The notes under the pieces: generated by a model
Database searches by the model: none
The model's input: only the letters and a program-made list of their open reading frames with translations
What the model was told of the DNA's origin: nothing
Made by a program: the position numbers and the translations under genes
In this document: positions 3,283 to 55,081 of the stretch, in pieces
How positions within the stretch are numbered: the first letter of the stretch is position 1
Layout of the letters: the number at the start of each line of letters is the position of its first letter
NCBI GenBank assembly: GCA_965198235.1
Contig: OZ240248.1
Location: forward strand, 4,256,001 to 4,320,000
Length of the DNA: 64,000 nucleotides
Direction: 5' to 3'
Origin: Candidatus Poribacteria bacterium
GTDB taxonomy: Bacteria > Poribacteria > WGA-4E > WGA-3G

Positions 3283-3404
3283 TAGGACTTACGCAAATTT
3301 GGAGTCGATGCCGACCTTGAGCGGATATTACCGAAGAACGCGCAATGAATTGCGCTACTACGAACGAAAGACCGCACGAAAACGGGTGAACTGCGTAAGT
3401 CCTA
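3283..3404. mobile_element. MITE family A copy 1 (TIR TAGGACTTACGCA, 5-bp TSD TTTTA)
   Basis: TAGGACTTACGCA at 3283 and TGCGTAAGTCCTA ending 3404; TTTTA at 3278-3282 and 3405-3409. Confidence 0.85.
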
Positions 3405-3406
3405 TT

Positions 3407-4096
3407 TTAATTAGCTTGCTCAACCTGTTCCATAAGCCACTCCACTTTACTCGGATCTTTTATACCCTTTGATGCTTCAACACCAGAACAGAGGTCGATG
3501 CCGTGGGGACGAATTGTCTCAATAGCGGCTTTGACATTCTCCGGACGAATCCCACCTGCGAAGAAAACGGGCAGCGGACTCTCTGCAATGAGCTCAGCAG
3601 CGACATTCCAATCACAGGTTTTTCCTGTACCGCCGTATCTCGGTTTCTCAAGACTTACATCAACGCTATCAAACAGCAGGAAATTCGCGCCAGCATCTCG
3701 GTACGCCAGCATCTCTTCTCGAACAGCCGGGACATCCACATTTTTAGGACTTCCCGCCGGCAAATAGACAGACTTCCAGAACTCACATGCGCTTGTGCGC
3801 TTAAGTTCCTCAACCTGCTGTGGAGACTCCTGTCCAAGGAGTTGAACGGCAAATGGCTGAACCTGCGAGACTATTTCTTGGATGTCGGACGTTGAGCGGT
3901 TATAGAGTAGAATTACGGTAGGAATAGGACTCTCGCTTGCAATTTCGGCGGCTTGAGTCGCGGAGCGTGTCCGTTCAGATACGGCAACATCAACCAACAC
4001 CCCGATGTAATCCGCTCCCGCATCAGCAGCAAGTCGAGCATCATGGATAGAGGTAGTGCCACAGATTTTGACACTGCAGCCGGATTCTTTAGACAT
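3407..4096 (-). CDS. trpF: Phosphoribosylanthranilate isomerase
   Basis: VKICG, GADYIG, YGGTGKTCDW, FAGGIRPENV, GIDLCSGVE motifs. Confidence 0.9.
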   Translation of the reverse strand: MSKESGCSVKICGTTSIHDARLAADAGADYIGVLVDVAVSERTRSATQAAEIASESPIPTVILLYNRSTSDIQEIVSQVQPFAVQLLGQESPQQVEELKRTSACEFWKSVYLPAGSPKNVDVPAVREEMLAYRDAGANFLLFDSVDVSLEKPRYGGTGKTCDWNVAAELIAESPLPVFFAGGIRPENVKAAIETIRPHGIDLCSGVEASKGIKDPSKVEWLMEQVEQAN

Positions 4097-4181
4097 TTTT
4101 TAATTATTCCTTGCGGTTCAGTGACGTGGTTTGAAATGTGGCGGTTTTTCCTTGGAGTCGCCCTCCATTTCATTACGGGCT
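4097..4181 (-). repeat. Hairpin element ending CCGCAAGGAATAATTAAAAA directly at the trpF ATG
   Basis: Shares the 5' hairpin (AGCCCGTAATGAAATGGAGGGCG) and 3' end with copies at 25527, 35284, 48673 and 49167. Confidence 0.75.
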
Positions 4182-4806: not shown

Positions 4807-4957
4807 AGTGGTTTCCTTTTTTTAAACTTCATCAAACTTCGCCAGCGGCGGTGGGGTTCGTTCGCTGAACAACTGCCTACATATTTCCGGGCTTTACTAT
4901 AAAGTGCCGGCAAGGAATGTCCAGTGGACATTCTGATCTTCAAGCATAAACTATTGT

Positions 4958-5121
4958 TAACCCAAGCCACTTTTTTATTCACATAGCACCCCTCTGGGAT
5001 GCGGCTTCTCGAATGGCCGATTTTCTATAGACATAACACCCCTACGGGGTGTAAAAAGAAGTTTTTACTTGAAAAATCTATGTTCAAACGTTCAAGACCT
5101 ATTAGGTAGCAACTTGGATTA
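4958..5121. mobile_element. MITE-like family B copy 1
   Basis: Ends TAACCCAAG / CTTGGATTA overlapped by direct repeat TATTGTTAA; internal CACATAGCACCCCTCTGGGATGC and TATAGACATAACACCCCTACGGGGTG hairpins shared with 23943-24200. Confidence 0.65.
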
Positions 5122-5161
5122 TTGTTAAAAACCTTTCGCATAGTCAACGCTTGGCAACCCA

Positions 5162-13619: not shown

Positions 13620-13774
13620 TAGGACTTACGCAATTTTTCTATGAGCACCTCCGTATGACGCGCCGCTGGCGAGGTGTTTTTGCTGGGGGTTTTTGCTTGG
13701 GGTTTTTGATAGGGTGTTTCCTCTGCGGATTTCCCCTAGAAACCTCGCCAGCAATGGATGTTGCGTAAGCCCTG
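13620..13774. mobile_element. MITE family A copy 3 (5-bp TSD TTAAG)
   Basis: TAGGACTTACGCA ... TGCGTAAGCCCTG; TTAAG at 13615-13619 and 13775-13779; contains palindrome GCTGGCGAGGT..AACCTCGCCAGC split by a low-complexity insert. Confidence 0.85.
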
Positions 13775-15006: not shown

Positions 15007-16404
15007 ATGTTAACCAAAGCCAACATTGAACATGAAAAATCAAAACTAGGCTCTCCATTTTTTGAGGATGCCCTCGCCCCGACTCGCGATGAAGCGACAC
15101 TTCTGCCCCTGCTTGATAACCTCGGTAAATTACCAGCAGGATTTAATGGTGAACTTTTTATCCCACTTCTCACGCATGTGAACCCGAAGATCCGCATGCT
15201 CGCAGCAAAAAATGTCGGCAAACTCAAAGATGAAAAGTTTTTAACAGAACTTTCACAATTGGTATCCACCGAAAAAAATACTTTCGCCCGTCGCGAGGCG
15301 ATTTCCGCGATTGGACGCATGAGAAGCGAAAAGGCAATCCCGGTTTTGACTCAGTACCTCACCGATGCAGACCCAAAGGTCATTCTACAAGCACTGCGCG
15401 GGTTACTCTATTTTAAAGAAAAGCCGGAAGTTCAAAGTGCGTTAGACTCTTTGCATAAACACCCGAATGAACTCATCCGAGAGCATCTCGCTAACGAGGT
15501 GAAAAATAAAAGTGAAAGATCGCAAGGTGTGAAAAAAGATAGGCATCACTCAACCAGCCTAGATACTCTCAAAAACGTGATTGTCCACGCCGACGTGCAA
15601 AAGACACTAAAAGTAATTCCAGATGAGTCAATCCATCTCACTTTTACATCGCCACCCTATTACAATGCTCGAGATTACACAATTTACGAAAGTTACGAGG
15701 CATATCTTGACTTCCTAACTGCTGTCTTCAAGGAAACACATCGTATTACCAAAGAGGGACGGTTCTTTGTGCTTAACACATCTCCTGTTATCTTGCCTCG
15801 CATTAGTCGCGCCCATTCCAGCAAACGATATGCCATTCCGTACGACATACACCCACGCCTTACTGAAATAGGGTGGGAATTTATCGATGACATCGTTTGG
15901 ACGAAACCCGACTATGCTGCCAAAAACCGAAACGGAGGGTTTTTCCAACATCGTAAGCCTCTTGGGTACAAAGCGAATTCTGTCACTGAAAACGTCATGG
16001 TATACCGAAAGAAAACAGATAAGCTCATCGACTGGAACATCCGTCAGTACGACGATGAAACCATTGCCGCAAGCAAAGTTATGGGAGAGTATGAAAAAAC
16101 GAACCTGTGGCATATTAATCCTGCGACCGATAAAGTTCACCCAGCAGTCTTTCCGCCTGAATTGGCAGCGCGTGTCGTGCGATTCTATTCCTTTAAAGGA
16201 GATCTCGTTTTCGACCCATTTGGAGGTAGTGGGACTGTTGGAGACGTTGCCCTAACTCATGAAAGGTACTTTCTTCTCTGTGAAAAAGAAGCAGAATATG
16301 TTGAACGCGCGAAACACTTACTTAATACAGCTTTGTTTACTCAGTCAAAACCTCGGGTTCTTTCGCTTACTGAATTAAAATCTGCCCTTGTAGAAAGGAA
16401 TTAA
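15007..16404 (+). CDS. HEAT-repeat-fused beta-class DNA methyltransferase (N4-C/N6-A)
   Basis: N-terminal HEAT units (LAAKNVGKL, EAISAIGRM, QALRGL); TSPPYY precedes DPFGGSGT; HPAVFP. Confidence 0.88.
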   Translation: MLTKANIEHEKSKLGSPFFEDALAPTRDEATLLPLLDNLGKLPAGFNGELFIPLLTHVNPKIRMLAAKNVGKLKDEKFLTELSQLVSTEKNTFARREAISAIGRMRSEKAIPVLTQYLTDADPKVILQALRGLLYFKEKPEVQSALDSLHKHPNELIREHLANEVKNKSERSQGVKKDRHHSTSLDTLKNVIVHADVQKTLKVIPDESIHLTFTSPPYYNARDYTIYESYEAYLDFLTAVFKETHRITKEGRFFVLNTSPVILPRISRAHSSKRYAIPYDIHPRLTEIGWEFIDDIVWTKPDYAAKNRNGGFFQHRKPLGYKANSVTENVMVYRKKTDKLIDWNIRQYDDETIAASKVMGEYEKTNLWHINPATDKVHPAVFPPELAARVVRFYSFKGDLVFDPFGGSGTVGDVALTHERYFLLCEKEAEYVERAKHLLNTALFTQSKPRVLSLTELKSALVERN

Positions 16405-16409
16405 AATCT

Positions 16410-17402
16410 ATGACCGTTACTGGTATTGTTATCAAAAATATCATCCGAAAACTGCTCGCAGGACAAGACTACCGCTCCGAAGTTTTGACTCTGATCAATG
16501 CCGAGTTCTTACAATATGTTGTTGACTTTTTCAAACGTGTCGCTTGTGCAAAGTTGGATAACAAAGACGTGACTGTTGATTGGTACAAAAAGGAGCTCCT
16601 TTGTTCAGACTTACTTTCCAAAGAAGAGGTCGCTATTCATTCAGGTCTGAACATGAAAACAATCTCAAATATGTACAATTCAGCGAGTAAGTCAATTGTC
16701 TTGGAAGCATCGCTAGAACATTACGATGCGCTCTACGATGCCATCAACAGTTTAACTGAACAAGATAGCATAGATGTGGCTTTCACAATAAAATTTCGGG
16801 ATGTGAGCGTTGATTTGAATATTAACGAGAGTTTGATTGTAATCAATACACTCGCTGTCAAACGTTCAGCACTTCGAGGCGGATTATGGAGCACTGCTGG
16901 AAAACAAGTAGAAAAACCGTTAATGGTCGCCCTTTGCGCCCTCTTCCAAGTGCCGAAAAAATACTTTGATCAGACAAATCTTCCAGAATCAGAGCGAGAA
17001 TCCGATTTCTACCTGTTTGACGGTACAGGAAAGGCCTACCCCTGTGAAGTGAAGTTAATGGGAAAAGGAAACCCTGAAAGCGCGGATGCGGTGTACGCCA
17101 GGGACAGCCGCGTGTTGGTCGCGAACACACTTTCAGACTTGAATAAAGAACAAATGGATTCAAACAACATTCTCTGGGTTGAACTTCAAACTGAAAATGG
17201 ATATAAACGATTTGAAGAGGTCCTAAAGACCTTATCTATCCCTTACAAACCCTTTACCGGAGATCTCCAAGGAGCATTAGATAAAATTTTGTCCGTCATT
17301 CTGTCTGACGATGTCCAAGAGTCAGTAACCCCTCAAGTCGTTTTAATCGAAAGTGAACAAGATAGCGATTCCGGCTCACAATTACTGGTTGAATTTGAAT
17401 GA
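16410..17402 (+). CDS. Type II restriction endonuclease, CfrBI-like
   Basis: Directly follows the MTase; IIRKLLAGQDYR, GGLWSTAGKQVEKPL, ESDFYL and CEVKLMGKGNPES (PD-(D/E)xK) resemble the CfrBI family. Confidence 0.78.
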   Translation: MTVTGIVIKNIIRKLLAGQDYRSEVLTLINAEFLQYVVDFFKRVACAKLDNKDVTVDWYKKELLCSDLLSKEEVAIHSGLNMKTISNMYNSASKSIVLEASLEHYDALYDAINSLTEQDSIDVAFTIKFRDVSVDLNINESLIVINTLAVKRSALRGGLWSTAGKQVEKPLMVALCALFQVPKKYFDQTNLPESERESDFYLFDGTGKAYPCEVKLMGKGNPESADAVYARDSRVLVANTLSDLNKEQMDSNNILWVELQTENGYKRFEEVLKTLSIPYKPFTGDLQGALDKILSVILSDDVQESVTPQVVLIESEQDSDSGSQLLVEFE

Positions 17403-23942: not shown

Positions 23943-24200
23943 TGACCTAAGCACATAGCACTCCGCTGGAGTGCAAGAGATTGTGGACCCCCGGTTTCTA
24001 TAGACATATCACCCCGCTGGGGTGAGAAAAACACCTGAAAAACCTTATTGAAATCCGCAGAAATCCGCAGAAATCCGCAGAAACACCCAAGCAATACGCA
24101 GAAATACCCAAGCAAAAACACCCCTATCAATACGCAGAAATACCCAAGCAAAAACACCCCAAGCAAAAACACCAAAATTTGTTAGTAGCAACTTGGGTTA
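23943..24200. mobile_element. MITE-like family B copy 2, containing a low-complexity tandem array
   Basis: TGACCTAAG ... GTAGCAACTTGGGTTA; same internal hairpins as 4958-5121; array at 24050-24173. Confidence 0.65.
24050..24173. repeat. Low-complexity tandem array (GAAATCCGCA x3, CAAGCAAAAACACC, CAATACGCAGAAATACC)
   Basis: Direct reading; 44 bp at 24080-24123 match 35352-35395 with one mismatch. Confidence 0.85.
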
Positions 24201-24254
24201 TTTTAGCGAAAAAAATCGTGACTGGGCGGTCGCTTCTACATGAAGAGAGACCCA

Positions 24255-25526
24255 TCAAGAATATAGCCCCCGTAGCACCTCAAAATAATTAGGGAACGTC
24301 TTGCTGACACAGTCTGGATTATTAATCCGAATCCCTTTTGCCTTTAAACCGACGAGCGAAAATGCCATCGCCATACGATGGTCATCGTAGGTATCAATTG
24401 CAGTGGGGGTAATAGGGGCGGGTGAAATTTCGAGTCCGTCTCGGTGTTCAACGACAGGGACACCTAACTTTCGTAGTTCTGTCACCATTGCATGGATTCG
24501 GTCGGTCTCTTGCCAGCGTGTGTGTTCAATGTTTCGGATGGTTACTTTGCTATAGGCGAACGGAGCAATCGCCGCGAGGGTTAGAGCAGTATCCGAAATC
24601 GCCCTCATATCCACATCGATCCCTTTCAACTGGCTCGGTCCAGTAACGGTAATCCCAATGTCAGAAACAGTGACCTGACACCCCATCTGCTCCAAAATAC
24701 GCACAAACTGAACATCGCCTTGCACGGAATCTAAGTGCAAATGTTGGACAGTGACACGTCCACCGGTGAGCGCAGCAGCAGCAAAGAAGTAAGAGGCGTT
24801 GGAGGCATCCGGCTCAATGTTATAGATACGCGGCTGATACCGCTGTCCACCTTCAATCCGAAAATATCGATAGCCTTCCCTGACGACCTGTACACCAAAC
24901 GCCTCCATGACTGCCAATGTGATGTCAATATAGGGCATTTCGCGGTCCCCGACGACCTCAATCTCTACGTCGTTTTTAGCATAGGGTGCGATGAGTAGCA
25001 ACGCCGTCAAGAATTGACTGCTCTTACTGACATCAAGTCGGGTCTTTCCACCCTCCAGTCCGTTTGCTTCGACGATGACAGGAAGATGTCCATTGTCATA
25101 TTGCGAGCGTGCCGAAACTCCAATTTGCGTCAGGGCATCCAGTAAATCGGAGATGGGGCGGCCGTGTCGCATCGGTTCATCGCCATCAATGACGAACCTC
25201 CCATGACCTAACGAAACGTAGGCGGTAAGCGAACGTGAAGTGGTCCCTGAGTTTCCGATATAGAGTTCAGCACTCGAAACCGGAATGTCCCCGCCATTTC
25301 CATGCACATCAAACCTCGCCTGCTTCTCATCAGCGTTAATCTCGATACCGAGCTTCTGCAGAGCATTGCACATATAGCGCGTATCATCGCTGAAGAGAGC
25401 ACCCGTTAGAGTCGAAGCCCCGCGTGCCAACGCGGCAACTAACAACGCGCGGTTGGTATAACTTTTGGAACCCGGCACCACAATCGTGGCATCAAGCGAT
25501 TTACGAATCGGCTGTATCTCAATCAT
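24255..25526 (-). CDS. aroA: 3-phosphoshikimate 1-carboxyvinyltransferase
   Basis: PGSKSYTNR, GNSGT, SSQF, EPDAS, ETDRI, DHRMAM, KTFPNYF. Confidence 0.95.
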   Translation of the reverse strand: MIEIQPIRKSLDATIVVPGSKSYTNRALLVAALARGASTLTGALFSDDTRYMCNALQKLGIEINADEKQARFDVHGNGGDIPVSSAELYIGNSGTTSRSLTAYVSLGHGRFVIDGDEPMRHGRPISDLLDALTQIGVSARSQYDNGHLPVIVEANGLEGGKTRLDVSKSSQFLTALLLIAPYAKNDVEIEVVGDREMPYIDITLAVMEAFGVQVVREGYRYFRIEGGQRYQPRIYNIEPDASNASYFFAAAALTGGRVTVQHLHLDSVQGDVQFVRILEQMGCQVTVSDIGITVTGPSQLKGIDVDMRAISDTALTLAAIAPFAYSKVTIRNIEHTRWQETDRIHAMVTELRKLGVPVVEHRDGLEISPAPITPTAIDTYDDHRMAMAFSLVGLKAKGIRINNPDCVSKTFPNYFEVLRGLYS

Positions 25527-25615
25527 TTTTTAATTTTACCTTGCGGTTCGTTCAGGCGGATTAGGTATTTAACGCGCCGCTCCGTATATCCGTCCTCCAC
25601 TACGTTACGGACTAC
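25527..25615 (-). repeat. GTAG-hairpin element ending CCGCAAGGTAAAATTAAAAA at the aroA ATG
   Basis: GTAGTCCGTAACGTAGTGGAGGACGGA...AACCGCAAGGTAAAATTAAAAAATG. Confidence 0.8.
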
Positions 25616-25633: not shown

Positions 25634-25679
25634 AAAATCCGTGTTCTCCGCGTTTTCCGCGCACTTCCGCGATTCAGAC
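25634..25679. repeat. 9-bp periodic repeat ending CCGCGATTCAGAC
   Basis: TCCGTG/TCCGCG units at about 9-bp period; related to 62194-62240. Confidence 0.6.
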
Positions 25680-25756
25680 TTTTTTCTCTATATCCGCCTT
25701 CCACTTCGTTACAGGCTGCGTTTTCGCTGTAAATTATTGTATCCTGAAAAACTCGT

Positions 25757-31259: not shown

Positions 31260-33358
31260 TCTCCTTTTGACAGCCGTTTAATCGTAAATCCGTTCCACAC
31301 CCAACGTTTTTTATCTGTATAAATCACTTGGGTTAGACGCTCGTCGGTAATAGTAACAGTGTATCGTCTCTCCGCAGATTCATCCGCTGAGGTAAGACGT
31401 AGTTTCTGGAATTTCTTTTCGCCGTTCGCAATCAGGTTAATCTCCACCGGTGCAACGATCCCCGCGTAGAAATAACACGTTATCTCATAAGTGCCATTGG
31501 GGAGTGCGATTCTGAAAACACCATCCTCTTCACCCCAGAGGTTATCTTGATACAGAAGAAGATTCGGTTCACCTACTGCCAAGACCTCGCGTATGTCCCG
31601 CGCAGATTTCGTGTTTTCGGTATGCCAATATTTGAGTTCAAAACCACCTCCGCCGGTTCTGAATCTATCCTGCACAGATTTCGACATCCAACCATACCGA
31701 CCGTCTGTATAGCCCGTGTCCTTGTATATAAGGATGTGCCCTGGAGCAGTCTCTGCATCGCGCGGTTGCATGTCGAACGTGATTGCAGTCGTGTCCTGCC
31801 ATAATTGCGCGTCTGGTGCTGCTCTCTTTCGCCGGTAAAGCCGATTAAAGTTAGTTGAATGGATCACTTCATAATCTTGAACAAGATCTCCAACACCATC
31901 ATACTCTGTTCGCCAAACAAGGACATAGTCCGCCGGCATTTTCCTGTTCTTGTAGCGCAGCGGAAAATGATCCGTGCTGGGCTCATAGTTCTGAAGATAC
32001 ACAACACCGTTCTCTAACGCCAGATAACCCTCTATATGCTCAAACGGAAGAATGTATTTAAAATCCCAATTAGCCGAATCAGGTGTCCCTCCCCATGAAC
32101 CCGGACGACTTGCGAGAACAGTATTCGGTTCTATCATCTGCGCTGATGAAAGTGCTTCTTTAGCGTCTCTGTCCATCAGATAGTAGGTTTGAACGTGATA
32201 GCCGAGATGCCATAGTGCTAAAACAATCAGGATTCCACCAAAGGCATAGTCAACGAATCTATGAAAGCTAAAACTAAAGAACGGAAGCAGCGCGAGTAAA
32301 ATATAGATATGTATCCGATCGCTGATCCACATACCACCAGAGCGCAAACTCCACGGGGATTTGAAATAGATGAAGGTTAGTATGAGAGCAATCAGCAAAA
32401 ACGCGTCCGTCCGATCCACAATTGCGGTAACACCTCCATACCCTCCGCTTTCCGATTTCGACGAGGCACGGAGCGCATAGATTTTGCGTACCCTGTCGAT
32501 TATGGTGAGCAAAAAGGCGATAGTAAGCACAACGAGGAGAAGGTTGCCTATTAGGATATGGGCATCCCGAAAGGAGACAATGGAACCGATGGAGAGAAAG
32601 TACTTCATTAATCCTTCAAAACTCCTATGGAAACCACCTCCCTCTCGTTTCACAAGATAGTAGGACAACAGGATTACATAAGCAGGGAGCATAGAACCCA
32701 AGAAAAGCAAGATAGGTTTCAGCTGCGTAGCTAACCGCACACGAGGAGATTCTAAGACTTCATAAATATAGAGGAAAACACCGAGGAACGTTAGGGATAC
32801 TGTAAGCAGGGCGTAGGATTGAAAGTGCGTGAGATAGACAACTGTGAGCCATACATAGACCGTGACAAACGCTCTCGGACTGAGTTTATCCTTGCATCGC
32901 CACCACCCCCCAAGTGCGAAAAAAAACAGTGAAACACTCAAAGCGAAGTTATAGAACCCCATGTGAAGCAAATAGTTATAGGCAAAAATGAAACCGACCA
33001 AGCAGAAGAGCGTCTTACTTTTCTGAATACCGTTGAGGAGATAGAGGAGGGAAAGCGGTAGGAGTCCTATGCAGAGGCTAAAAAATATCTTTTCGCATAC
33101 AAGCGGCGGAAAGATATACATGAGACCTGCCATCAGTGCGTGGGATGTCCAATTCGGAAAAAGCGTCGGATTAAGTTCGTAAACTTCCCGCAGCATGTAG
33201 TTTTCGTGATTGTGATATACCTTTAAGACGTGTGCGTTATGGGCATGGGCTGGTCCATCCTGAGTGCAGGTATATTTGAACAGCCAAACGGGCAGAATAT
33301 GCACCACCAAAAGCACAATCACGACAATGTGCTGGATAGATAATCGACGCGCCTTCAT
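31256..33358 (-). CDS. Polytopic membrane protein (GT-C-like) with C-terminal galactose-binding-like beta-sandwich
   Basis: TQDGPAH after TM1, PNW, MGFYNF, about 12 TM segments; C-terminal TFDMQP..GRYGW..FRIALPNGTYEIT. Confidence 0.55.
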   Translation of the reverse strand: MKARRLSIQHIVVIVLLVVHILPVWLFKYTCTQDGPAHAHNAHVLKVYHNHENYMLREVYELNPTLFPNWTSHALMAGLMYIFPPLVCEKIFFSLCIGLLPLSLLYLLNGIQKSKTLFCLVGFIFAYNYLLHMGFYNFALSVSLFFFALGGWWRCKDKLSPRAFVTVYVWLTVVYLTHFQSYALLTVSLTFLGVFLYIYEVLESPRVRLATQLKPILLFLGSMLPAYVILLSYYLVKREGGGFHRSFEGLMKYFLSIGSIVSFRDAHILIGNLLLVVLTIAFLLTIIDRVRKIYALRASSKSESGGYGGVTAIVDRTDAFLLIALILTFIYFKSPWSLRSGGMWISDRIHIYILLALLPFFSFSFHRFVDYAFGGILIVLALWHLGYHVQTYYLMDRDAKEALSSAQMIEPNTVLASRPGSWGGTPDSANWDFKYILPFEHIEGYLALENGVVYLQNYEPSTDHFPLRYKNRKMPADYVLVWRTEYDGVGDLVQDYEVIHSTNFNRLYRRKRAAPDAQLWQDTTAITFDMQPRDAETAPGHILIYKDTGYTDGRYGWMSKSVQDRFRTGGGGFELKYWHTENTKSARDIREVLAVGEPNLLLYQDNLWGEEDGVFRIALPNGTYEITCYFYAGIVAPVEINLIANGEKKFQKLRLTSADESAERRYTVTITDERLTQVIYTDKKRWVWNGFTIKRLSKGE

Positions 33359-33545
33359 AATTGTCTCGCTCTTAGACAGCCACCTTTTGCATAAATAGAA
33401 CCGAATGTTGCTATTCTACAAGAACTGAGCCGCGGGGTCAATAGAAATCGTGAGGACATAGAGTTTATACAAATTGCTCCGCTGCTGGCGCGGTTTGACC
33501 TCCCCTAACAGCGGAGCGTATTACAAACAAATGTAACTGTATAAA

Positions 33546-34388
33546 CTAAAATGCGGTTTGAGTTCGTGTATCTTCTGCCTGCGTGTCACTCGAAGATGCA
33601 GCTTCTTGATTCTCGGGTTCCTCAGGTGCTGGAACTTCGCTCTCCTGGGAAGCCATCGTTAATTGCTTTATACGCTCGCACAGTTCATCTAACAACTGTG
33701 GTGACGTTTCGGCTGCCTTCAGTTCAGCAGAAAGCTGCGTCCACTGCATCTCGCTCATATCGTTCCGAGATTCCACACCATATTTACGTTTGATGTAATT
33801 CCAGAGATCTGCCTTATCGATGCCTTTCCCTTCAAGCGGTCCCGCCAGATTGTTAGCGATTGCAAAAGCCGCTTTTTGGGCGTTAGCGATATTTCCACCA
33901 CCCTGTTGTAACTGCGGTTGTTGCGTCGCATTACCACTCCCTGTTTTTCGGTTCAGATAGAAATTCAGTACCTCGCGGATGACCGGCACGGGTATCAACT
34001 GTTTAATTGCGTTGCGTTGCGCTTTATGAATTGCTTTGGTGAACGCGAACGGATCGGAGCGTCCGCCAGCCATCTTCAGTTGCTCATACGCGCCGTAACG
34101 AGACGAACCCGTGATTGTATCGACTGCTTTCGCAGTAGCAATCCAAGAATGCTCGCGTTCCTCATAATCGATCTCTTCGATCTGGATACCGCCCCGGCGA
34201 TTTGCGGCTTCGTTAATACCGGCTAAGGTCAACCCTTCAACAGTACGACCACCCTGTTTGAAGGAATAGACATAATCCTGAATCGTCTGTCCAGTCATCA
34301 ACTCAATGATAGCCTGGTCATCCACCTGATCGACGACCTCATATTCAGCGGCAACTGGAACCATTTCGTTGTTTTTTTCTTCAGCCAT
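33546..34388 (-). CDS. Putative Rad52/RecT-like single-strand annealing protein
   Basis: Beta-beta-beta-helix core ending FAFTKAIHKAQRNAIKQLIP, Q-rich linker, small helical C-terminal domain. Confidence 0.5.
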   Translation of the reverse strand: MAEEKNNEMVPVAAEYEVVDQVDDQAIIELMTGQTIQDYVYSFKQGGRTVEGLTLAGINEAANRRGGIQIEEIDYEEREHSWIATAKAVDTITGSSRYGAYEQLKMAGGRSDPFAFTKAIHKAQRNAIKQLIPVPVIREVLNFYLNRKTGSGNATQQPQLQQGGGNIANAQKAAFAIANNLAGPLEGKGIDKADLWNYIKRKYGVESRNDMSEMQWTQLSAELKAAETSPQLLDELCERIKQLTMASQESEVPAPEEPENQEAASSSDTQAEDTRTQTAF

Positions 34389-34472: not shown

Positions 34473-35282
34473 TTAATCGTCGGCAATGCCCGTAGTGATC
34501 TCGACCTGTTCTTTGTCTGTTACGATCCGTTCAATGTAGAGTGTGAACGTATACGTCTGATGGTTTTCGTATTTTTGAAGGTTTGAAGGAAAGAAACCAC
34601 CCCCTGCCACATCATCTACAATCCAAAATGTCACGTTTCTATTATTCGTGTCAAGCGTCATCGCGCCTGAATAATTTTTTACCAATTCGGGGTCTACATC
34701 ATCTCGAATCCCCAGCAGTTCATTTAGCCTCTTAAGTGAAACGGTCTCATTGTGAAGGCGCACTGTTTTTCCGACATAAGTTTGACCAGCAGCCACAATC
34801 TGTTCAAGTGTCGTGTCGATAACTTCAACATCCGCTTTCGCGGTGTGTTCAGGAACATCAGACCAAATGGTGAAGAAACGCTCTCCGTCTGTAGTTGTGC
34901 CCTCGGAAATATCTTTTATAAGGAGTGTGAAAGTGTAAGTTGTATGACCCCGAATATGTCCGAGATCGCTCCCCATGTAATTTGAATAATAGTGGCGCAG
35001 AAACTTAGCGTTCGAGTCTGTGATGAAAAAACGGACTTTATTGTGATGCGTAAACAATTCTAACGTTGGGGGAACCCCATCAGCACTCGGATAAATTCTG
35101 CCAGCAGCGGTAATCGTAACCTTCTGTCCCTTGTATTTTGAGTTGATGCCGTTTACTGCAACATCGCTGACAATATCAGTGAGTGTGACAGGTTCGACGT
35201 TGAGGGTTTTCGGATGAAATTTCGCACAACCCCCAAATATAAAAATAGCAAAGCAAGCACATAAAGATGTAAAAAGTTTCAT
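34473..35282 (-). CDS. Hypothetical lipoprotein with an internally duplicated domain
   Basis: Lipobox IFGGC; two repeats (YKGQKVTI..TYTFTLLIKDI and YVGKTVRL..TYTFTLYIERI). Confidence 0.65.
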   Translation of the reverse strand: MKLFTSLCACFAIFIFGGCAKFHPKTLNVEPVTLTDIVSDVAVNGINSKYKGQKVTITAAGRIYPSADGVPPTLELFTHHNKVRFFITDSNAKFLRHYYSNYMGSDLGHIRGHTTYTFTLLIKDISEGTTTDGERFFTIWSDVPEHTAKADVEVIDTTLEQIVAAGQTYVGKTVRLHNETVSLKRLNELLGIRDDVDPELVKNYSGAMTLDTNNRNVTFWIVDDVAGGGFFPSNLQKYENHQTYTFTLYIERIVTDKEQVEITTGIADD

Positions 35283-35283
35283 G

Positions 35284-35416
35284 TTTTTTAATTATACCTT
35301 GCGGTTAAATAGCGTGTGTTAGAACTATCAGATGCGTTCCTTAAATCTGAAGAAACACCCAGGCAATACGCAGAAATACCCAAGCAAAAACACCCTGCGC
35401 CGTTGTTGCAGGCTAC
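35284..35416 (-). repeat. GTAG-hairpin element ending CCGCAAGGTATAATTAAAAAA just before an ATG, carrying a low-complexity insert
   Basis: GTAGCCTGCAACAACGGCGCAGG-[GTGTTTTTGCTTGGG...]-...AACCGCAAGGTATAATTAAAAAA-C-ATG. Confidence 0.78.
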
Positions 35417-35509
35417 CGTTTGGTTTAAGAATTATAACGACTTCTATTTAACATGTCAAATTATACGGGAAACTCATCCAATTCGCTCAAAAAACATCAC
35501 TCTATAAAG

Positions 35510-38944: not shown

Positions 38945-38965
38945 TAAGAGGTCTCCGCGTTCCCA

Positions 38966-38990
38966 GTAGGAGCGATCTCCGAATCGCGAA
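38966..38990 (+). repeat. GTAG-type REP-like palindrome
   Basis: GTAGGAGCGATCTCCGAATCGCGAA, near identical to 62801-62825. Confidence 0.75.
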
Positions 38991-40176: not shown

Positions 40177-40845
40177 ATGCAGGAGATAACACTCTCCGAA
40201 ATACAGCAAATTTGTCACGAACGGGGTATCAACACACTTTGCCATTTTACCCGGATAGAGCGTTTACCTAGCATTTTACACCGTGGGCTACTAAATCGTA
40301 ATTTTCTAGAGACACTTCCTTCAAAAATTAGACCCCAATTTCCTGATCCAAATCGAGATGATGGATACAAAGATGCAATTTGCTTGAGCATCAGCTTCCC
40401 AAACTATAGAATGTTTTTCAGTAAAACAGGGCATACCAACCAACGCGAATGGGTCGTTTTGCTGCTTGACGCGAGAATATTATGGGAAAAGGATTGTGCG
40501 TTTTGCCACCAGAATGCGCGCTTTGAACCTGTACTCGGTGTTCGATTGGGGGACAGGAAAAAACTCGCGTCATTAAAAAGAATGTTCCAGAATTGGGATT
40601 TTCACGCAACAGGTTTAAGGTACCAACGTCAGCAAATACCTGATAATTATCCAACACACCCTGAAGCGGAAGTTCTTGTATTTGACTCAATTCCAGCAGA
40701 GTACATCAACGAAGTCCACTTCTATGATGACACTGCTTTGCAAACGTGGCTGAAGGACAATCCAGGAACTTATTCTCCAAAGTTTTACGCTAATCGGCAA
40801 TATTTTGGACCTAGATGTGATTACAAAATATGGCAAAATCAATAA
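40177..40845 (+). CDS. darT: DarT-like DNA ADP-ribosyltransferase toxin (DarT1 type)
   Basis: LCHFTRIERLPSILHRGL, RDD, ICLSISFPNYRMF, PTHPEAEVLV. Confidence 0.82.
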   Translation: MQEITLSEIQQICHERGINTLCHFTRIERLPSILHRGLLNRNFLETLPSKIRPQFPDPNRDDGYKDAICLSISFPNYRMFFSKTGHTNQREWVVLLLDARILWEKDCAFCHQNARFEPVLGVRLGDRKKLASLKRMFQNWDFHATGLRYQRQQIPDNYPTHPEAEVLVFDSIPAEYINEVHFYDDTALQTWLKDNPGTYSPKFYANRQYFGPRCDYKIWQNQ

Positions 40846-40872
40846 CATGAATATTAGCAGGAGCCAAGTATA

Positions 40873-41583
40873 ATGGCAAAACGCCCTATTTTTACTCCCA
40901 ATCTCAACAAATTTCCGTATGTTGATGCGATAGATATAGAGTTTAAATGGCACTCTGGCTTTGCAAAATTGCAGTTGCAAAAGTCCATAGCATCTTTGCA
41001 TGAAGCCGCCGAAAAACTGAATAAGATCTCTCCAATTTTGGAAATATCGGGAAAATCTGCGTCGGACTTAGGGATTAGCTTGAGTGCATTTAATCTGTCA
41101 TTGAAAACACCAAACGGTCAGAGAATGAGTGTCGAGTGTGCATATCAGGGAAGCAAAGTGTTTGAAAATGGCGGTCCCTACCACGAACTCTATTTGGCCT
41201 CAAGTCGAGAAGCGAAAACGGATGAACGGTTAAAGAATTCAGGGGAATTAATTGCTTTCAACTTCTGCGGAGAAGATTTCCCTATTGAACCCAAAACGGC
41301 TTTCTATGACTGGCTGTATATGACCGCGCTGTCGGAGAAAAAAACAGATTTTGTGAAAGAACTCGGGGTGTTTCAAGGTTTTTCAGACATCGTCTTCAAC
41401 CCTAATCGCTCGCTCAACTGTCAAGCACATGCAGCTGCTTTATTTGTTGCTTTGTCCAAAAACGAATTGATCAATGAACAGATACTTCAAAACAAAGAGC
41501 GTTACTTGGCACTCATAACAGGCAAAGCACAATTCCCATCAGTCCAACCAACTCCACGCCAACTTACTCTATCGTTCCGGTAA
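40873..41583 (+). CDS. DarT1-associated NADAR family antitoxin
   Basis: MAKRPIF, KSIASLH, LEISGKS..LSAFNL, SVECAYQGSKVFENGGPY, AFYDWLY, FNPNRSLNCQA. Confidence 0.8.
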   Translation: MAKRPIFTPNLNKFPYVDAIDIEFKWHSGFAKLQLQKSIASLHEAAEKLNKISPILEISGKSASDLGISLSAFNLSLKTPNGQRMSVECAYQGSKVFENGGPYHELYLASSREAKTDERLKNSGELIAFNFCGEDFPIEPKTAFYDWLYMTALSEKKTDFVKELGVFQGFSDIVFNPNRSLNCQAHAAALFVALSKNELINEQILQNKERYLALITGKAQFPSVQPTPRQLTLSFR

Positions 41584-41844
41584 ATGCGTTTAAACAGGAA
41601 ACATCAAAGGACATTGAAGGCTATTTTTAGCACACAGATCCCTGCCACGTTGCAATGGCGGCGGATTGAAGCCCTCTTCATAGCACTTGGTGCCACAAAA
41701 GAAGAAGGACGCGGATCTTCTGTGACCTTCAAACTAAAGGAGGAGCATGCTACGTTTCACCGACCTCATTCTCAAAAAGAGGCAAAACGGTACCACGTAC
41801 GCGATGCGCGAGATTTCCTTAAAAAAGTAGGAATAACACCATGA
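41584..41844 (+). CDS. hicA: HicA family toxin, copy 1
   Basis: KHQRTL, WRRIEALFIALGA, EGRGS, FHRPH. Confidence 0.85.
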   Translation: MRLNRKHQRTLKAIFSTQIPATLQWRRIEALFIALGATKEEGRGSSVTFKLKEEHATFHRPHSQKEAKRYHVRDARDFLKKVGITP

Positions 41845-42095
41845 AAACAATAACACACAGAGGATTTACAGCAGAAATCATCTATAGTCAAGAAGATGAG
41901 TGTTTTGTGGGCCATGTTGTCGATCCTAGTGATGATATTATAGGTTTCCACGGAAACACAGATGCTGAGTTGCGTGCTGCCTTTGAAGACGTAGTGGATC
42001 TTCACATCAAGGTCAAAGAGCAACCAGAAAATCCGTCGCAAAAGCACGTCGCTAGCAGGATCCTAGCACGCCTACGACAAGCCTTCAATTTGTAG
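41841..42095 (+). CDS. hicB: HicB family antitoxin (short), copy 1
   Basis: HRGFTAEIIYSQEDECFVG, IIGFHG..ELRAAFEDVVD. Confidence 0.82.
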   Translation: MKTITHRGFTAEIIYSQEDECFVGHVVDPSDDIIGFHGNTDAELRAAFEDVVDLHIKVKEQPENPSQKHVASRILARLRQAFNL

Positions 42096-42240
42096 CAGAG
42101 ACCCACACCGCTCGTTCTTGAGAAGTAATTTTATTGGACCAAGTACAGATGTGGTTACTGCCTTACCGGCTTTTCTGATGCAAATACAGTATACCTTTCA
42201 TAATTCAGCCAGAGGTAGTGCTTGTGAGCGGAAGGCAGCC

Positions 42241-44187
42241 ATGTCAGAAAAAAGACAATCCCAAATCGGAACTGGAGCTGAAACAACCTCGCTCCTTCCG
42301 CCGCTCGCCATCGGTGTGGCTCTGATCCTTCTCAATGCATATTGGATCGCATTAGTCAGCGGTATCCACCACTCTTTGAATCCTGCCTATGCCTCTCTGT
42401 TTATCGCCCCAATCGTCAACCTCTTTTTTGCGGTGCTGATCAATACACTGCTAAAGCGGATTCGTCCACAACTCGCCCTGAGCCGTGCCCAACTTCTCTT
42501 AGTCTATCAGATGTTGGTAATGCTTTGTGTGGTCTCCGGGCACAATCCGATGGACTTCATTCTGGGAATCCTCGCGCATCCGTTCTGGTTCGCCACCTTT
42601 GAAAATGAATATGCAACCCTCTTCCATAGGTATATCCCGTCTTGGTTAACGGTTGAAGATAAAGGTGCACTCACCGGTTTCTTTGAAGGAAACTCGACCC
42701 TATACACACCAAGACACCTGTTAGCATGGATAGGTCCTGTGCTGCTCTGGTCGTTTGTCACGTTCATCCTCTTTTTCATTTTGATGTGTTTCAACAGCAT
42801 CCAGCGTTTGCAGTGGAGCGAACGGGAACGACTCAGCTATCCGATTGCACAACTCCCTATAGAGATGACCACCCCACGTTTTTTTTCAAGAAGATTACTG
42901 TGGCTGGGGTTCAGCATCTGTGCAGTGATAGAACTCCTCAACGGACTCCACTTCCTTTACCCCTTTGTGCCCGGCGTGCCTCTCAAAATACCCGACTTTG
43001 GGGCGACACTCTTTACGACGAAACCTTGGAGCGCGATTGGATGGTTACCCCTCTTCTTTTACCCTTGGGTCATCGCGCTGACGTTTTTCGTGCCGCTCGA
43101 ACTCTCGTTTTCAGTCTGGTTCTTTTTTCTGTTTACAAAATTTCAGTTGATTGTAGGGAGCATCGGCGGCTGGAAATCGCTGCAAGGTTTTCCGTATTAC
43201 AATCAACAAGGAATTGGCGCGTGGTTGACGCTCGCGATTCTAATCCTATGGACAAGCCGTAAGCACCTCAAAACAGTATTTACTACAGCTTTGAAGTCCT
43301 CTGACAACGGCATCGCCGCTCACAAAAACGAACCGTTTCAATATCGCACCGCTCTACTCGGCATCTTAGTCGGCACAACAATCCTCGTTATCATCTTCCA
43401 TCAGGCGGGTATGTCTGTCGGAATTCTCCTCGCCTTTCTATGTCTCTACTTCCTCATGTCCATCGCCATAACGTATGCAAGGGCAGCAGTCGGTGTGCCA
43501 TATCATGAAGTCATTTGGACGCATCCACAACTGATGATCGTCTCGGTTTTAGGGGTCCGACGGACGGGTGCGGCGAACCTGACACTTTTCTCTTTTTTGT
43601 ATCCCTACGTTCGCGACAACGTCTCGCATCCAATGCCGAGTCAGTTAGAAGGGTTCAAAATGGCGGAGCGCGCACCAGTTTCGCAGAAAAAGATGGCGAT
43701 CGTTATGATAGTCGCCCTATTGGTTGCCACCCCTGTCTCTTTCTGGGCATATTTGCATCTCATCTATCAACACGGTGCCGTGCGAACTGAGGGGTACATT
43801 ATCGGTATCGGCATTGAAACTTTTGAACGTTTGCTACTGCCGTGGTTACAACAACCCCATGCTACAGATAGCACAGGATTGAGTTTCACGGCATTCGCCT
43901 CGCTGTTCACGTTGGGATTAATGTTCCTGAGAAGACAGTTTATTTGGTTTCCTTTCCACCCAACGGGCTACGCACTCGGTTTATCAGCAGGAATGGTTTG
44001 GGTCTGGAGCGCAATCTGTGTCGGTTGGATCATCAAGGCGGTCCTACTCAAATTCGGGGGGTTGCGAATCTATCGGAAGGCTGCCCCATTCTTTGTTGGG
44101 GTGATTTTGGGTGACTTTCTGACCGGAACGTTTTGGAGTTTAGTGGGTGCCATTTTCGGGATACCAGTATATCGGGTCTGGTATTAA
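42241..44187 (+). CDS. Large polytopic membrane protein (DUF6785/DUF6784-like, putative transporter)
   Basis: QWSERERLSYPIAQLP, PLELSFSVWFF, WFPFHPTGY, PFFVGVILG; many TM segments. Confidence 0.7.
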   Translation: MSEKRQSQIGTGAETTSLLPPLAIGVALILLNAYWIALVSGIHHSLNPAYASLFIAPIVNLFFAVLINTLLKRIRPQLALSRAQLLLVYQMLVMLCVVSGHNPMDFILGILAHPFWFATFENEYATLFHRYIPSWLTVEDKGALTGFFEGNSTLYTPRHLLAWIGPVLLWSFVTFILFFILMCFNSIQRLQWSERERLSYPIAQLPIEMTTPRFFSRRLLWLGFSICAVIELLNGLHFLYPFVPGVPLKIPDFGATLFTTKPWSAIGWLPLFFYPWVIALTFFVPLELSFSVWFFFLFTKFQLIVGSIGGWKSLQGFPYYNQQGIGAWLTLAILILWTSRKHLKTVFTTALKSSDNGIAAHKNEPFQYRTALLGILVGTTILVIIFHQAGMSVGILLAFLCLYFLMSIAITYARAAVGVPYHEVIWTHPQLMIVSVLGVRRTGAANLTLFSFLYPYVRDNVSHPMPSQLEGFKMAERAPVSQKKMAIVMIVALLVATPVSFWAYLHLIYQHGAVRTEGYIIGIGIETFERLLLPWLQQPHATDSTGLSFTAFASLFTLGLMFLRRQFIWFPFHPTGYALGLSAGMVWVWSAICVGWIIKAVLLKFGGLRIYRKAAPFFVGVILGDFLTGTFWSLVGAIFGIPVYRVWY

Positions 44188-44318: not shown

Positions 44319-44585
44319 ATGAATGTCCGTCTAAACAAAAAGCATCAAAAAACACTGGAGGCTATTTTTGGTACACAAATCCCATCCACGTTGCAGTGGC
44401 GGCGGATTGAAGCCCTTTTCGCAGCACTTGGTGCGACAAAAAAGGAGAGAAAAGGCTCTGGTGTAGTTTTTCAACTGAACGAAAAAAGAGTTACATTCCA
44501 CGTCCCTCCTCCTCGGAAAGAAGCACAACGGTACCAAATTAGGCGCGCACGAAATTTTCTAGAAGAAGTAGGAATAACTCCATGA
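44319..44585 (+). CDS. hicA: HicA family toxin, copy 2
   Basis: Paralog of 41584; FHVPP instead of FHRPH. Confidence 0.82.
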   Translation: MNVRLNKKHQKTLEAIFGTQIPSTLQWRRIEALFAALGATKKERKGSGVVFQLNEKRVTFHVPPPRKEAQRYQIRRARNFLEEVGITP

Positions 44586-44833
44586 AGACAATGACATACA
44601 AGGGATATACTGCTGAAATCCACTACAGTGACGAAGATGGTTTTTTCGTCGGCGATGTTGTGGGCATTGACAATATCATTTGTTTCCACGGAAATACCGA
44701 CGAAGAACTACGTATTGCTTTTGAAGACGTGGTAGATCTCTATATTGAGGCACTGGAGGAACCAGAGAATCCGCCGCAAAAGCACTATGCGTGGAGGCTT
44801 CTGTCGCGTCTACGTCAAGCATTCCATCTATAA
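44582..44833 (+). CDS. hicB: HicB family antitoxin (short), copy 2
   Basis: MTYKGYTAEIHYSDEDGFFVG, ICFHG..ELRIAFEDVVD. Confidence 0.85.
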   Translation: MKTMTYKGYTAEIHYSDEDGFFVGDVVGIDNIICFHGNTDEELRIAFEDVVDLYIEALEEPENPPQKHYAWRLLSRLRQAFHL

Positions 44834-48533: not shown

Positions 48534-48587
48534 TTTTTAATTGTTCGCAAAGCGTTTAATTTTTTAATTGTTCGCAAAGCGTTTAAT
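48534..48587. repeat. Perfect 27-bp tandem duplication
   Basis: TTTTTAATTGTTCGCAAAGCGTTTAAT x2, at the AATTAAAAA end of a variant GTAG element (48534-48648, minus strand). Confidence 0.9.
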
Positions 48588-48672
48588 GAAGTAATTAGTC
48601 TATTGACGGTTTTCTCTCATATCCGCCTGCGCCGTTGTTGCAGGCTACCGTCTTAAGTTAATTTTCGTAACC

Positions 48673-48761: not shown

Positions 48762-49172
48762 ATGATTCAGCAAATCGAAATAACCTTACCCGAATACCCG
48801 CGCGGTTTCCATCTCGTCACAGATGAGATTATGAAATCGCTCGATGAATTGCCGAAAGAAGGTATCCTGCACCTCTTTATTAAGCACACCTCAGCAGGTT
48901 TGACCATCAACGAAAACGCAGACCCGACGGTACGTGAAGACTTTGCCAACAGTTTCGACCGTCTCGTTAAGGAACGCGAACCGTTCTATAAACACACAAT
49001 AGAAGGCGATGACGATATGCCAGCGCATATCAAAGCGTCACTCGTCGGCTTTACCGTCTCCGTCCCAATTACCAACCATCGCCTTAATTTAGGCATATGG
49101 CAGGGCATATACTTGTGCGAATTCCGAAACAGCGGTGGCAGACGAAATCTAACAGCAACACTTTACTTTTAA
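48762..49172 (+). CDS. yjbQ: YjbQ / UPF0047 (secondary thiamine-phosphate synthase-like)
   Basis: HTSAGLTINENADP, EGDDDMPAHIK, LGIWQGIYLCEF. Confidence 0.92.
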   Translation: MIQQIEITLPEYPRGFHLVTDEIMKSLDELPKEGILHLFIKHTSAGLTINENADPTVREDFANSFDRLVKEREPFYKHTIEGDDDMPAHIKASLVGFTVSVPITNHRLNLGIWQGIYLCEFRNSGGRRNLTATLYF

Positions 49173-49254
49173 TTATTCCTTGCGGTTCGGTTAGGTCAAT
49201 TGGGTAAATAACGTCACTCGCCGTATATCCGCCTGCGCCGTTGTGGCAGGCTAC
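49167..49254 (-). repeat. GTAG-hairpin element, inverted, overlapping the yjbQ stop codon
   Basis: Minus strand GTAGCCTGCCACAACGGCGCAGGCGGA...AACCGCAAGGAATAATTAAAA. Confidence 0.8.
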
Positions 49255-49298
49255 GGTCTCGTTGCTATATTATGGGTGGATGTCGTTCCTAAGTAGGA

Positions 49299-54854: not shown

Positions 54855-55081
54855 ATTTTTCGTAAGTTTACCACCCGTTGTAGATTGTTTCGCGGATCTA
54901 ATAGGCATTATCGTAACAAATCCCAAGCCTTTTTTCAAGCAAATTAACCATTGCAAAAAAATACGGGGCATGATAGACTAAAAGCCATTCTGAAGTCATT
55001 CGCTTTTGACGTTCGCTGTCTACGACGAAAAAACAATATTTTCCCATCACTGGCAGCAGGTGGGAGTAAGGAGTTAGACCT

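Follow-up and report, generated by a model that had tools for sequence, protein, structure and literature searches.

The small dispersed repeats SDR1 to SDR8 of Nostocaceae cyanobacteria were reportedly described by Elhai et al. in 2008, who are also said to have found a hairpin common to SDR4-6 and conserved through compensatory changes. To our knowledge, SDRs are very small nested repeats of one cyanobacterial family, and their mechanism has been unexplained since 2008. Here we compare with them three tracts of low complexity, T1, T2, and T3, in a 64,000-nucleotide stretch of the genome of a Candidatus Poribacteria bacterium (assembly GCA_965198235.1, contig OZ240248.1, positions 4,256,001 to 4,320,000), the whole of which is called the window below. 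With a probability of roughly 0.5, we read these tracts as an SDR-like nested insertion module with slippage-prone sub-repeats that would be small, non-coding, strand-asymmetric, and widespread in Poribacteria.

SDR5 is described as inserting precisely within the palindrome HIP1, between its nucleotides 3 and 4 (PMC4390886, PMC5861425). No SDR-like repeat was reported outside the Nostocaceae among HIP1-rich cyanobacteria (PMC5861425), and further SDR features appear in a third source (PMC2884548). The Poribacteria module shares with SDRs the size class (20 to 27 nt, against a core of 20 to 25 nt here), the many near-identical dispersed copies, and the embedding in other repeats, with no duplication of the target and at an exact point that here follows the ...GG at the center or foot of palindromes; association with tandem short repeats is seen sometimes. 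It differs in that its sequence is unrelated, its phylum is another, and it is strongly strand-asymmetric (G/T) and unstructured, with an internal polar minisatellite through which it grows from 25 to 124 nt. A mini-hairpin of the form (T/G)GGG-YRTTT-CCC(A/C) is possible in a subset of copies; it is precluded in the many that have TTC or TGC at their end. Among copies with K = T, 9 of 19 have an A after the C run, versus none of 8 with K = G (p = 0.026).

In E. coli, bacterial interspersed mosaic elements (BIMEs) are mosaics of palindromic units and short conserved motifs. The likeness of our locus to these, to repetitive extragenic palindromes (REPs), and to REPINs lies in the repeats that host the tracts: GTAG-tagged palindromes, the coexistence of short and long loops, and intergenic mosaics. 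REPs measure 20 to 40 bp, are imperfectly palindromic and tagged by GTAG or CGTC, and typically go with a cognate RAYT gene, for a Y1 HUH transposase, in the same genome. The tract itself is non-palindromic, G/T-only, not self-complementary, and without a GTAG tag, the palindromes and tags being host features; it is common to several unrelated palindrome families as well as to non-palindromic hosts, and the loop is more conserved here than the arms, the reverse of what is usual for REPs. GTAG-tagged REPs with short and long loops are covered in PMC3733652, and REPINs in PMC3116915. [quoted passage not shown] It is likewise intergenic and multi-copy, with tandem units in varying number between head- and tail-type subunits near gene starts, but it has a uniform 23-nt unit and small inverted-repeat ends of its own, whereas the Poribacteria units measure 10 to 36 nt, and their module lacks inverted ends and is a guest in several hosts. 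Nor does the tract look like a MITE (70 to 300 bp, with terminal inverted repeats [TIRs] and a target-site duplication), as it has no inverted ends and spans 20 to 124 nt. Two of its hosts are TIR elements, namely TTATAGTAAA...TTTACTATAA and an element that we call MITE B.

The tracts and their relatives in Poribacteria

The three G/T-rich tracts lie at the positions and on the strands at which an earlier note on this DNA had placed them (T1 on +, T2 and T3 on -), and the fixed 5' start and common vocabulary that it had pointed out are indeed present. The motif GGTGTTTTTGCT occurs in the window five times exactly and once with one mismatch, every time within T1, T2, or T3; these 6 occurrences compare with a chance expectation of 0.37, and 0 of 100 shuffles reached 6. 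Likewise, all seven window matches to a degenerate 19-nt core with three or fewer mismatches fall in the tracts (0.09 expected). At a threshold of at least 82.5% G+T per 40 nt, T1 is the sole + strand stretch in the window, and T2 and T3 belong to 10 segments on the - strand. All three tracts are intergenic according to the window's list of open reading frames (ORFs); a coding role was ruled out by this location and by the presence of stops. Folding of T2 (z = -0.17) and T3 (z = -0.41) is no better than that of shuffled sequence, and the DNA fold of the T1 region is dominated by the host stem (z = -2.3). Curved DNA seems an unlikely explanation, the T runs, as read from the sequence, recurring every 13 to 15 nt, out of helical phase.

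To find relatives, contigs were scanned with the exact 16-mer GGTGTTTTTGCTKGGG, taking one genome per species, which returned at least 120 loci (labelled L001 onward). At least 54 of these, from at least 27 assemblies, carry a Poribacteria title and come from short-read bins and contigs as well as chromosome-level assemblies. The sequence YRTTTC, for which no selection was made, follows the 16-mer in nearly all of the 56 matches of the Poribacteria-titled loci listed, the commonest continuations among these matches being TGTTTCCCC (11), TGTTTCTTC (6), TATTTCTGC (4), and CGTTTCCCC (4). The other 66 listed loci show no recurrent continuation and are mostly coding-like; L030, L110, and L114, which are among them and titled "uncultured bacterium," show the family continuation by eye. 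Judging from these matches, the tract motif is a phylum-wide family that is not confined to the source genome. Literature searches that paired Poribacteria with repeats yielded no account of such a module. Over an orthologous gene pair, the window is 82% identical to one Poribacteria chromosome. In two Acidobacteriaceae records (L039:2501 and L042:2501), the 16-mer lies inside long G/T-only stretches of low complexity with repeated GGTG and GTTTT units; these records have a common left flank, GTGGTGGAGT, and may represent an unrelated G/T-rich family of another phylum.

Low-complexity tandem arrays are error-prone, and the 124 nt of T2 are its assembled length. Nevertheless, an assembly or amplification artefact has a virtually negligible probability, since the same motif and grammar (see below) recur in at least 27 independent Poribacteria assemblies made with different assemblers, chromosome-level ones included, and at an orthologous site in two species.

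For the analysis of internal structure, 62 tracts were parsed from their first exact 16-mer into four unit types; the parser halts at variant units in a few tracts (such as L008 and L033), and degenerate heads before the first 16-mer are uncounted. The head unit A is GTGTTTTTGCTKGGG or the variant ...TTTGATAGGG; unit B is TATTTCTGCGKATTG followed by CTTGGG or ATAGGG; unit C is a 10-mer of the form GKRTTTCTGC; and the terminal unit E is ..TTTC followed by pyrimidines. The polar grammar A+ (B A*)* C* E fits the parsed prefixes of all 62 tracts, and in none of the 62 parsed strings does a head unit come after a 10-mer. The usual form is a core of about 25 nt, GGTGTTTTTGCTKGGG-YRTTTC-YYY, with one head and one terminal unit (AE; 45/62). 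Accordingly, 47 of the 62 tracts measure 30 nt or less, 13 measure 31 to 60 nt, and 2 are longer. The terminal 3' unit is conserved rather than ragged, and the units are heterogeneous in size (10, 13, 15, 21, and 36 nt) and position-specific.

Against this background, the three tracts of the window are unusually long versions of the core. T1 (13676..13736, +) lies within a palindrome loop and has three head units with a 13-nt period, one GTGTTTCCTCTGC, and a terminal GGATTTCCCC (parse string AAAE...). T2 (24050..24173, -) has the unit string A A B A B C C C E and, with 124 nt, is the longest of the 62 sampled tracts. T3 (35343..35393, -), whose unit string is A B E, corresponds colinearly to the 3' portion of T2, matching positions 24071-24123 without gaps at 94% over 53 nt; it is by this alignment that its edge possibly extends as far as 35343. 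According to Tandem Repeats Finder, T1 has a 13-nt period, and T2 has three periods: 10 nt, with 3.4 copies at a 100% match; 15 nt; and 36 nt, with 2.5 copies at 89%. The long arrangements are not peculiar to the window. Over its whole length, T1 is 87% identical over 63 nt to the tract of L033, which is in another species and another host, and T2 matches L008 (86% over 113 nt; other species, other flanks) and L049 (93% over 74 nt). Because they recur in other species and hosts, these long arrangements look copied or inherited whole rather than remade at each site.

These data bear on how the arrays were built. The earlier note had seen shared units shuffled into different orders, which did not look like simple slippage, and had proposed iterative, telomere-like copying of a short template at nicks or breaks in hairpins. 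We find a single polar order in the 62 parsed prefixes, with T3 colinear with T2, and internal tandem duplications are the expected product of slippage. Taken with the recurring long arrangements, the tracts are largely colinear variants of one element, the outcome that the earlier note had set against its own proposal. In a version of that proposal, a ...GG-3' end left by a nick or break at the 5' edge of the loop would prime on a short C/A-rich template (RNA or DNA), and the ...TTGGG end of the product would realign so that the head unit is repeated; the start would then be constant and the unit number variable. The 5' junction is indeed always after G or GG, and the head unit ends in GGG like the preceding host run, so that re-priming would yield the A-A-A runs seen. 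A single variable process would also be an economical account of the identical vocabulary and polarity across many hosts and at least 27 assemblies and of the presence of short and long forms in every host family. Defence reverse transcriptases (RTs) make concatemeric cDNA, and the G/T-rich strand, the fixed start by a G run, and head units ending in that run are reminiscent of telomerase or RT synthesis. Yet the units do not repeat a single template in permuted form, a conserved terminal unit defines the 3' end, most tracts have just one head and one terminal unit, and the heterogeneous units keep to their positions. Furthermore, whole long arrangements recur across hosts and species and hence were copied, subtypes follow host families, tract length is unchanged at an orthologous site of two species, and the tracts are chromosomal, internal, and stably inherited, with no RT or primase-polymerase among the 41 ORFs of the window or 144 flanking ORFs. 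Templated iterative synthesis is therefore not supported, and we consider it very unlikely, although the G runs of the head unit and the variant units common to different hosts leave it some scope. As another source of the arrays, self-nesting of the core was rejected; the junctions that it predicts (duplicated TGTTTC ends) are not seen in the parsed tracts.

Host repeats, landing point, and spread

Each tract starts directly after a G or GG of its host, and at least eight host types can be distinguished (a to h). Host a is the palindrome GCTGGCGAGG...CCTCGCCAGC. Ten copies, that of T1 among them, contain the tract, and at least 8 are empty and have loops of 6 to 7 nt (L016, two copies in L017, L019, L023, L026, L032, and L056). 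T1 is surrounded by an 11-bp inverted repeat and begins right after the GGT of the left arm GCTGGCGAGGT (13665..13675, +); the loop remnant TAGAA and the right arm ACCTCGCCAGC follow at 13737..13752 (+). As the earlier note had claimed, excising T1 restores the palindrome GCTGGCGAGGTTAGAAACCTCGCCAGC, but the excision must run from 13676 to 13736 and not from 13673, the leading GG(T) of tracts being host sequence. Palindrome and tract are together enclosed by an outer inverted repeat, AGGACTTACGCAA at 13621..13633 (+) with its partner TTGCGTAAGCCCT at 13761-13773, of a family (D5/D16) that has four copies in the window and also flanks the filled palindromes of L028 and L081.

Host b is the GTAG-tagged REP CCGGTAGGTKCGGT...ACCGMACC. 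Its copies in L005, L021, and L115 are empty and show the loop GGT-TAGAA-ACC; those in L020, L029, L085, and L087 contain the tract, both directions with respect to the GTAG end being represented. Host c is GTAGGG...CCCCTAC, and host d is GTAGGT...GGTTGAGCGG, with empty relatives in the window at 60175 and 62129, where the GTAG-tagged repeats CGTAGGTTGGGTTGAGC...GAAACCCAA lie (60175-60205 and 62129-62159). Elements with CCCCCTGATAAGG make up host e, which includes the hairpin CCCCCC-TGATAA-GGGGGG followed by TGTTTTTGC. Its subtype ...GGATTTAGGGGG^TTAAA (the caret marking the tract point) is empty in L010, L024, L038, L050, and at 60034 of the window, and filled in L074 with exactly 20 extra bases; the other subtype is the TIR element TTATAGTAAA...TTTACTATAA of about 165 nt, in which the tract is central. 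The repeat CCCCCTGATAAGGGGGATTTAGGGGG lies at 60034 (-), and L024 has four copies of it, three of them 48 to 49 nt apart. Host f is TTAAGAGG...CCTCGTTTAA.

Host g is a 5' leader cassette composed of the hairpin GCCTGC-N9-GCAGGC, then CGGATAT..., and then AACCGCAAGGWATAATTAAAAA-ATG. It is empty three times in the window (48619-48653, 49225-49259, and 25690-25724) and filled in T3, L050, L046, L049, L037, L043, and L006. At T3, the hairpin reads GCCTGC-AACAACGGC-GCAGG (35394..35413, -), where empty copies go on with C-GGATAT, and the 3' end of the cassette is the pre-start block AACCGCAAGGTATAATTAAAAAAC-ATG (35282..35320, -). T3 takes the place of the last C of the hairpin. It thus interrupts this hairpin at its 3' foot, as first proposed, but the stem is shortened from 6 to 5 pairs and not destroyed. 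Host h is MITE B (23951..24203, -), whose left end AACCCAAGTTGCTAC at 24185-24199 is followed by the tract and then by two small hairpins, for example, CACCCCAGCGGGGTG at 24010-24024. T2 is located inside it, as the earlier note had stated, and the tract sits at the identical point in L092, L109, L114, and L026. The sole tract-less copy, at 4940-5125 (-) in the window, has 23 unrelated bases at the tract point.

Each tract does interrupt a different repeat family; hosts a and g have clean tract-less copies in the window or at related loci. We agree with the earlier note that the tracts form an entity of their own, set into three host repeats that are unrelated, and are not a normal insertion sequence. 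Hosts that occur both with and without the tract, in either orientation, point to a precise landing after ...GG^. No flank is duplicated at the filled/empty pairs of hosts a, b, and ...GGATTTAGGGGG^TTAAA.

These observations also bear on a view in which nothing was inserted: the tract would be the ancestral spacer of one old palindrome whose arms have diverged, the empty copies would be secondary deletions, and the whole would be a REPIN, BIME, or MITE family of the ordinary kind, its spacer prone to slippage. Hosts a and b do both have GGT...ACC next to the loop and a loop resembling TAGAA, REP families are documented to occur with either short or long loops (PMC3733652), and module subtypes co-segregate with hosts. 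Weighing against common descent, MITE B, the leader hairpin, ...GGATTTAGGGGG^TTAAA, and the GTAG REPs have no detectable similarity outside the tract, both tract orientations occur relative to the asymmetric GTAG end of host b, and the tract may lie in a loop (T1), at a hairpin foot (T3), or beside a terminal repeat (T2). We regard an ancestral spacer as quite unlikely; if the tract were only a passenger spacer of REP or MITE families, the case would be an ordinary one.

With regard to spread, the K = G subtype makes up 14 of the 16 copies in hosts b and e versus 4 of the 35 in other hosts (Fisher p = 2e-7, with the grouping chosen post hoc and 51 of the 62 tracts classifiable by hand). Since subtypes track host families, most copies would have arisen through multiplication of host-plus-tract composites after few entries. 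In L023 and L013, the common part is only the TIR element of about 165 nt with its central tract, and the flanks are unrelated. SDR mobility is reportedly evident as presence or absence at orthologous sites of related genomes. For the module, the difference in the one orthologous empty/filled comparison (L083 versus window positions 33234-33741) comprises the tract together with its entire palindrome. Where two species have an orthologous filled site (L037/L043), the tract is kept at its length with 2 substitutions.

In the nested-module reading that we prefer, the basic unit would be the 20- to 25-nt core (GG)TGTTTTTGCTKGGG-YRTTTC-YYY, made of related sub-repeats of 10 to 15 nt, and the long forms would be this core plus extra sub-repeats that may be gained or lost through replication slippage or unequal exchange. 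The module would have made its way into several unrelated host repeats on a limited number of occasions, landing precisely after a G run (...GG^) in the unpaired center or at the foot of a hairpin. Later multiplication would have been mostly passive, inside REP-like palindromes, TIR-MITEs, and the 5' leader cassette, as suggested by the co-segregation of subtypes with hosts and by the discrete MITE of about 165 nt that carries the module at non-homologous places. For the first placement, our preferred guess, by analogy with what has been proposed for cyanobacterial SDRs, is either an insertion that acts in trans and is directed to single strands or hairpins, or else short-patch conversion.

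Several points weigh against this reading. The figure of at least 120 loci is a lower bound and not a census, and as all loci were ascertained by the exact 16-mer, conservation of that part is by construction. Variant units (GTATTTCTGCGTATTG and the ...GATAGGG link) are common to different hosts and species, which is hard to achieve through independent local slippage from a short core, so that one would have to assume either that long forms were copied or that they have a template in common. The "empty" copies could be deletions rather than pre-insertion states. At the related loci, no orthologous site was seen where the tract alone is present or absent, and given the small number of independent entries (some 8, perhaps), rare events of illegitimate recombination could suffice without a dedicated mechanism. 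Finally, Pfam searches detected no RT, primase-polymerase, HUH, or RAYT protein in 144 of 156 flanking ORFs, 12 being left out (6 of L043, 2 of L080, and 4 of L030), and no recurrent partner.

In the window itself, as the earlier note had stated, there is no candidate enzyme: Pfam searches of the 41 ORFs found no RT, primase-polymerase, HUH protein, or transposase. The 144 flanking ORFs include one TnpB, one DDE transposase, one rve integrase, and one tyrosine integrase. The TnpB gene (L021:3001-4122, +; OrfB_IS605 plus Cas12f-like TNB) has, at a distance of about 500 nt, a palindrome with a tract and a GTAG REP that is empty.

A bolder possibility, to which we assign only a slim chance, is that Poribacteria possess an ultra-small insertion element (about 20 to 25 nt) or a loop-filling synthesis that targets the 5' edge (...GG^) of the unpaired middle of extruded hairpins and could re-prime on its own GGG, so building polar arrays. 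If true, a defined G/T-rich sequence would be written independently of host-repeat transposition, in a mode of insertion without a described enzyme. A second, unrelated, and phylum-wide case beyond the cyanobacterial SDRs would make the question of mechanism approachable, since its filled/empty pairs in hairpin loops are clean, its polarity is defined, and complete chromosomes are available in number; one could then ask which enzyme or repair route puts 20 bases into the center of a palindrome.

Gene context and possible function

By a crude ORF call, 39 of the 43 tract sites with 2.5-kb flanks are intergenic. In the window, the G/T strand is the coding strand of the next gene for all three tracts. 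This co-orientation is not a rule, as across loci the tract strand agrees with that of co-directional neighbors 18 times and opposes it 13 times (p = 0.47), and the next gene is on the strand of the tract in 24 of 39 cases (p = 0.20). A transcription strand rule was rejected on the former count. A replication strand rule seems doubtful, as T1 on + and T2 and T3 on - lie within 22 kb; matches per complete chromosome are few. T2 is upstream of a gene (23918-20094) that encodes a secreted protein of 1274 amino acids with a type IX secretion system (T9SS) tail, one of the T9SS-tailed proteins encoded in the window. A predicted sigma-70-type promoter, TTGACA-17-TATAAT (35431..35459, -), which agrees with the consensus, the sole ground for calling it, at 12 of 12 positions, lies about 150 nt upstream of the lipoprotein-like gene 35282-34473. 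As T3 lies between this promoter and the start codon at 35282, it is probably transcribed within the 5' leader.

Possibly, then, the tract is a selected cis-acting element that works at the RNA level or as a protein-binding array, and its spread into different repeats is secondary. It might serve as a G/U-rich single-stranded landing pad, offer (N)GGAU motifs to a CsrA-like binder, or form a rut-like site on the C-rich antisense strand; its likeness to CsrA-binding and rut sites is putative. Such a role would fit the lack of structure (z about 0), the position of T3 between promoter and start codon and of T2 upstream of a secreted-protein gene, the 3/3 co-orientation, the GCGGAUUUC that the 10-mers of T2 bear three times, and the occurrence in similar locations of a second family with GTCTGAATC and (N)GGAT repeats. 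In the alignment of the MITE of about 165 nt, moreover, the tract is invariant and the remainder diverged; this invariance is largely a matter of ascertainment, as the exact 16-mer was required, and mutated copies do exist where sampling is unbiased (L013 at 2898, L070 at 4598). Together with the variable orientation to genes and the absence of Rfam matches, these points make a selected element unlikely in our view. Rfam returned no tract match at the gathering score for the window and 20 loci, nor at E values up to 1 for 17 short loci. As to a promoter role for the tract, this was rejected, promoter-like matches in the region numbering 18 versus 18.0 in shuffles. An intrinsic terminator has a GC-rich hairpin with a T run right behind it and lies downstream of a same-strand gene. 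Terminator-like matches total 15 in the region versus 13.9 expected; two coincide with the beginning of T1, and T3 has none. The orientation of the tracts to upstream genes is mixed.

Under the nested-module reading, function is probably none or incidental. In leaders (T3 and probably T2), the module would add an unstructured, G/U-rich stretch to the transcript, and it may keep host palindromes imperfect. For practical purposes, it is a marker of intergenic DNA in Poribacteria, and it makes the leaders of genes for secreted proteins and lipoproteins vary in length.

The GTCTGAATC family is a second case of a fixed head with a stutter: GTCTGAATC is followed by three or four degenerate units of 9 to 11 nt with (N)GGAT. 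Copies are found in the window at 25634-25679 (-) and 62195-62240 (-) and elsewhere at L003:2414, L006:867, L010:4943, L029:834, and L038:2433; in 265 kb of Poribacteria sequence, seven of eight occurrences of GTCTGAATC have the stutter form. The window copies are upstream of same-strand genes (aroA at 25526 and a gene starting near 62063). The GGA spacing is presumably like that of CsrA-binding RNAs.

A block AACCGCAAGG(A/T)A(T/A)AATTAAAAA is found at a fixed distance before the start codons of unrelated genes (trpF-like, aroA, lipoprotein, and others). Its window copies (family D3) are all on the - strand, at 4094-4132, 25524-25562, 35282-35320, and 49163-49201, and it also occurs in L037, L043, L046, L049, and L050, often preceded by the hairpin GCCTGC-N9-GCAGGC. 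It has the look of a leader or ribosome-binding cassette that members of the phylum have in common.

Further repeats and genes of the window

The window contains other repeats: CAGTAGGAGCGATCTCC...ATCGCGA at 2359-2384, 38964-38989, and 62799-62824; GTAGTAGGGCAATTCATTGCCC at 3334-3366 and 62015-62047; and an intergenic, perfect 27-nt tandem duplication, TTTTTAATTGTTCGCAAAGCGTTTAAT, at 48534-48587 (+). A 300-nt direct repeat with 73% identity (41587-41886 and 44328-44627, +) flanks a DUF6785/DUF6784 gene (42118-44187).

Two neighboring ORFs at 40177-41583 (+), one with a DarT domain and one a DarT1-associated NADAR protein (Pfam E = 4.5e-17 and 1.4e-84, respectively), are by their domains a predicted toxin-antitoxin or defence pair of the DarT1-NADAR type. 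At 15007-17402 (+), an N6/N4 DNA methyltransferase fused to HEAT repeats is followed by a CfrBI-like restriction endonuclease. Finally, an SbcC-like ATPase (1198 amino acids) and an SbcD-like metallophosphoesterase are encoded at 50089-54971 (-); this predicted hairpin-cleaving nuclease pair may be relevant to the fate of palindromic repeats.

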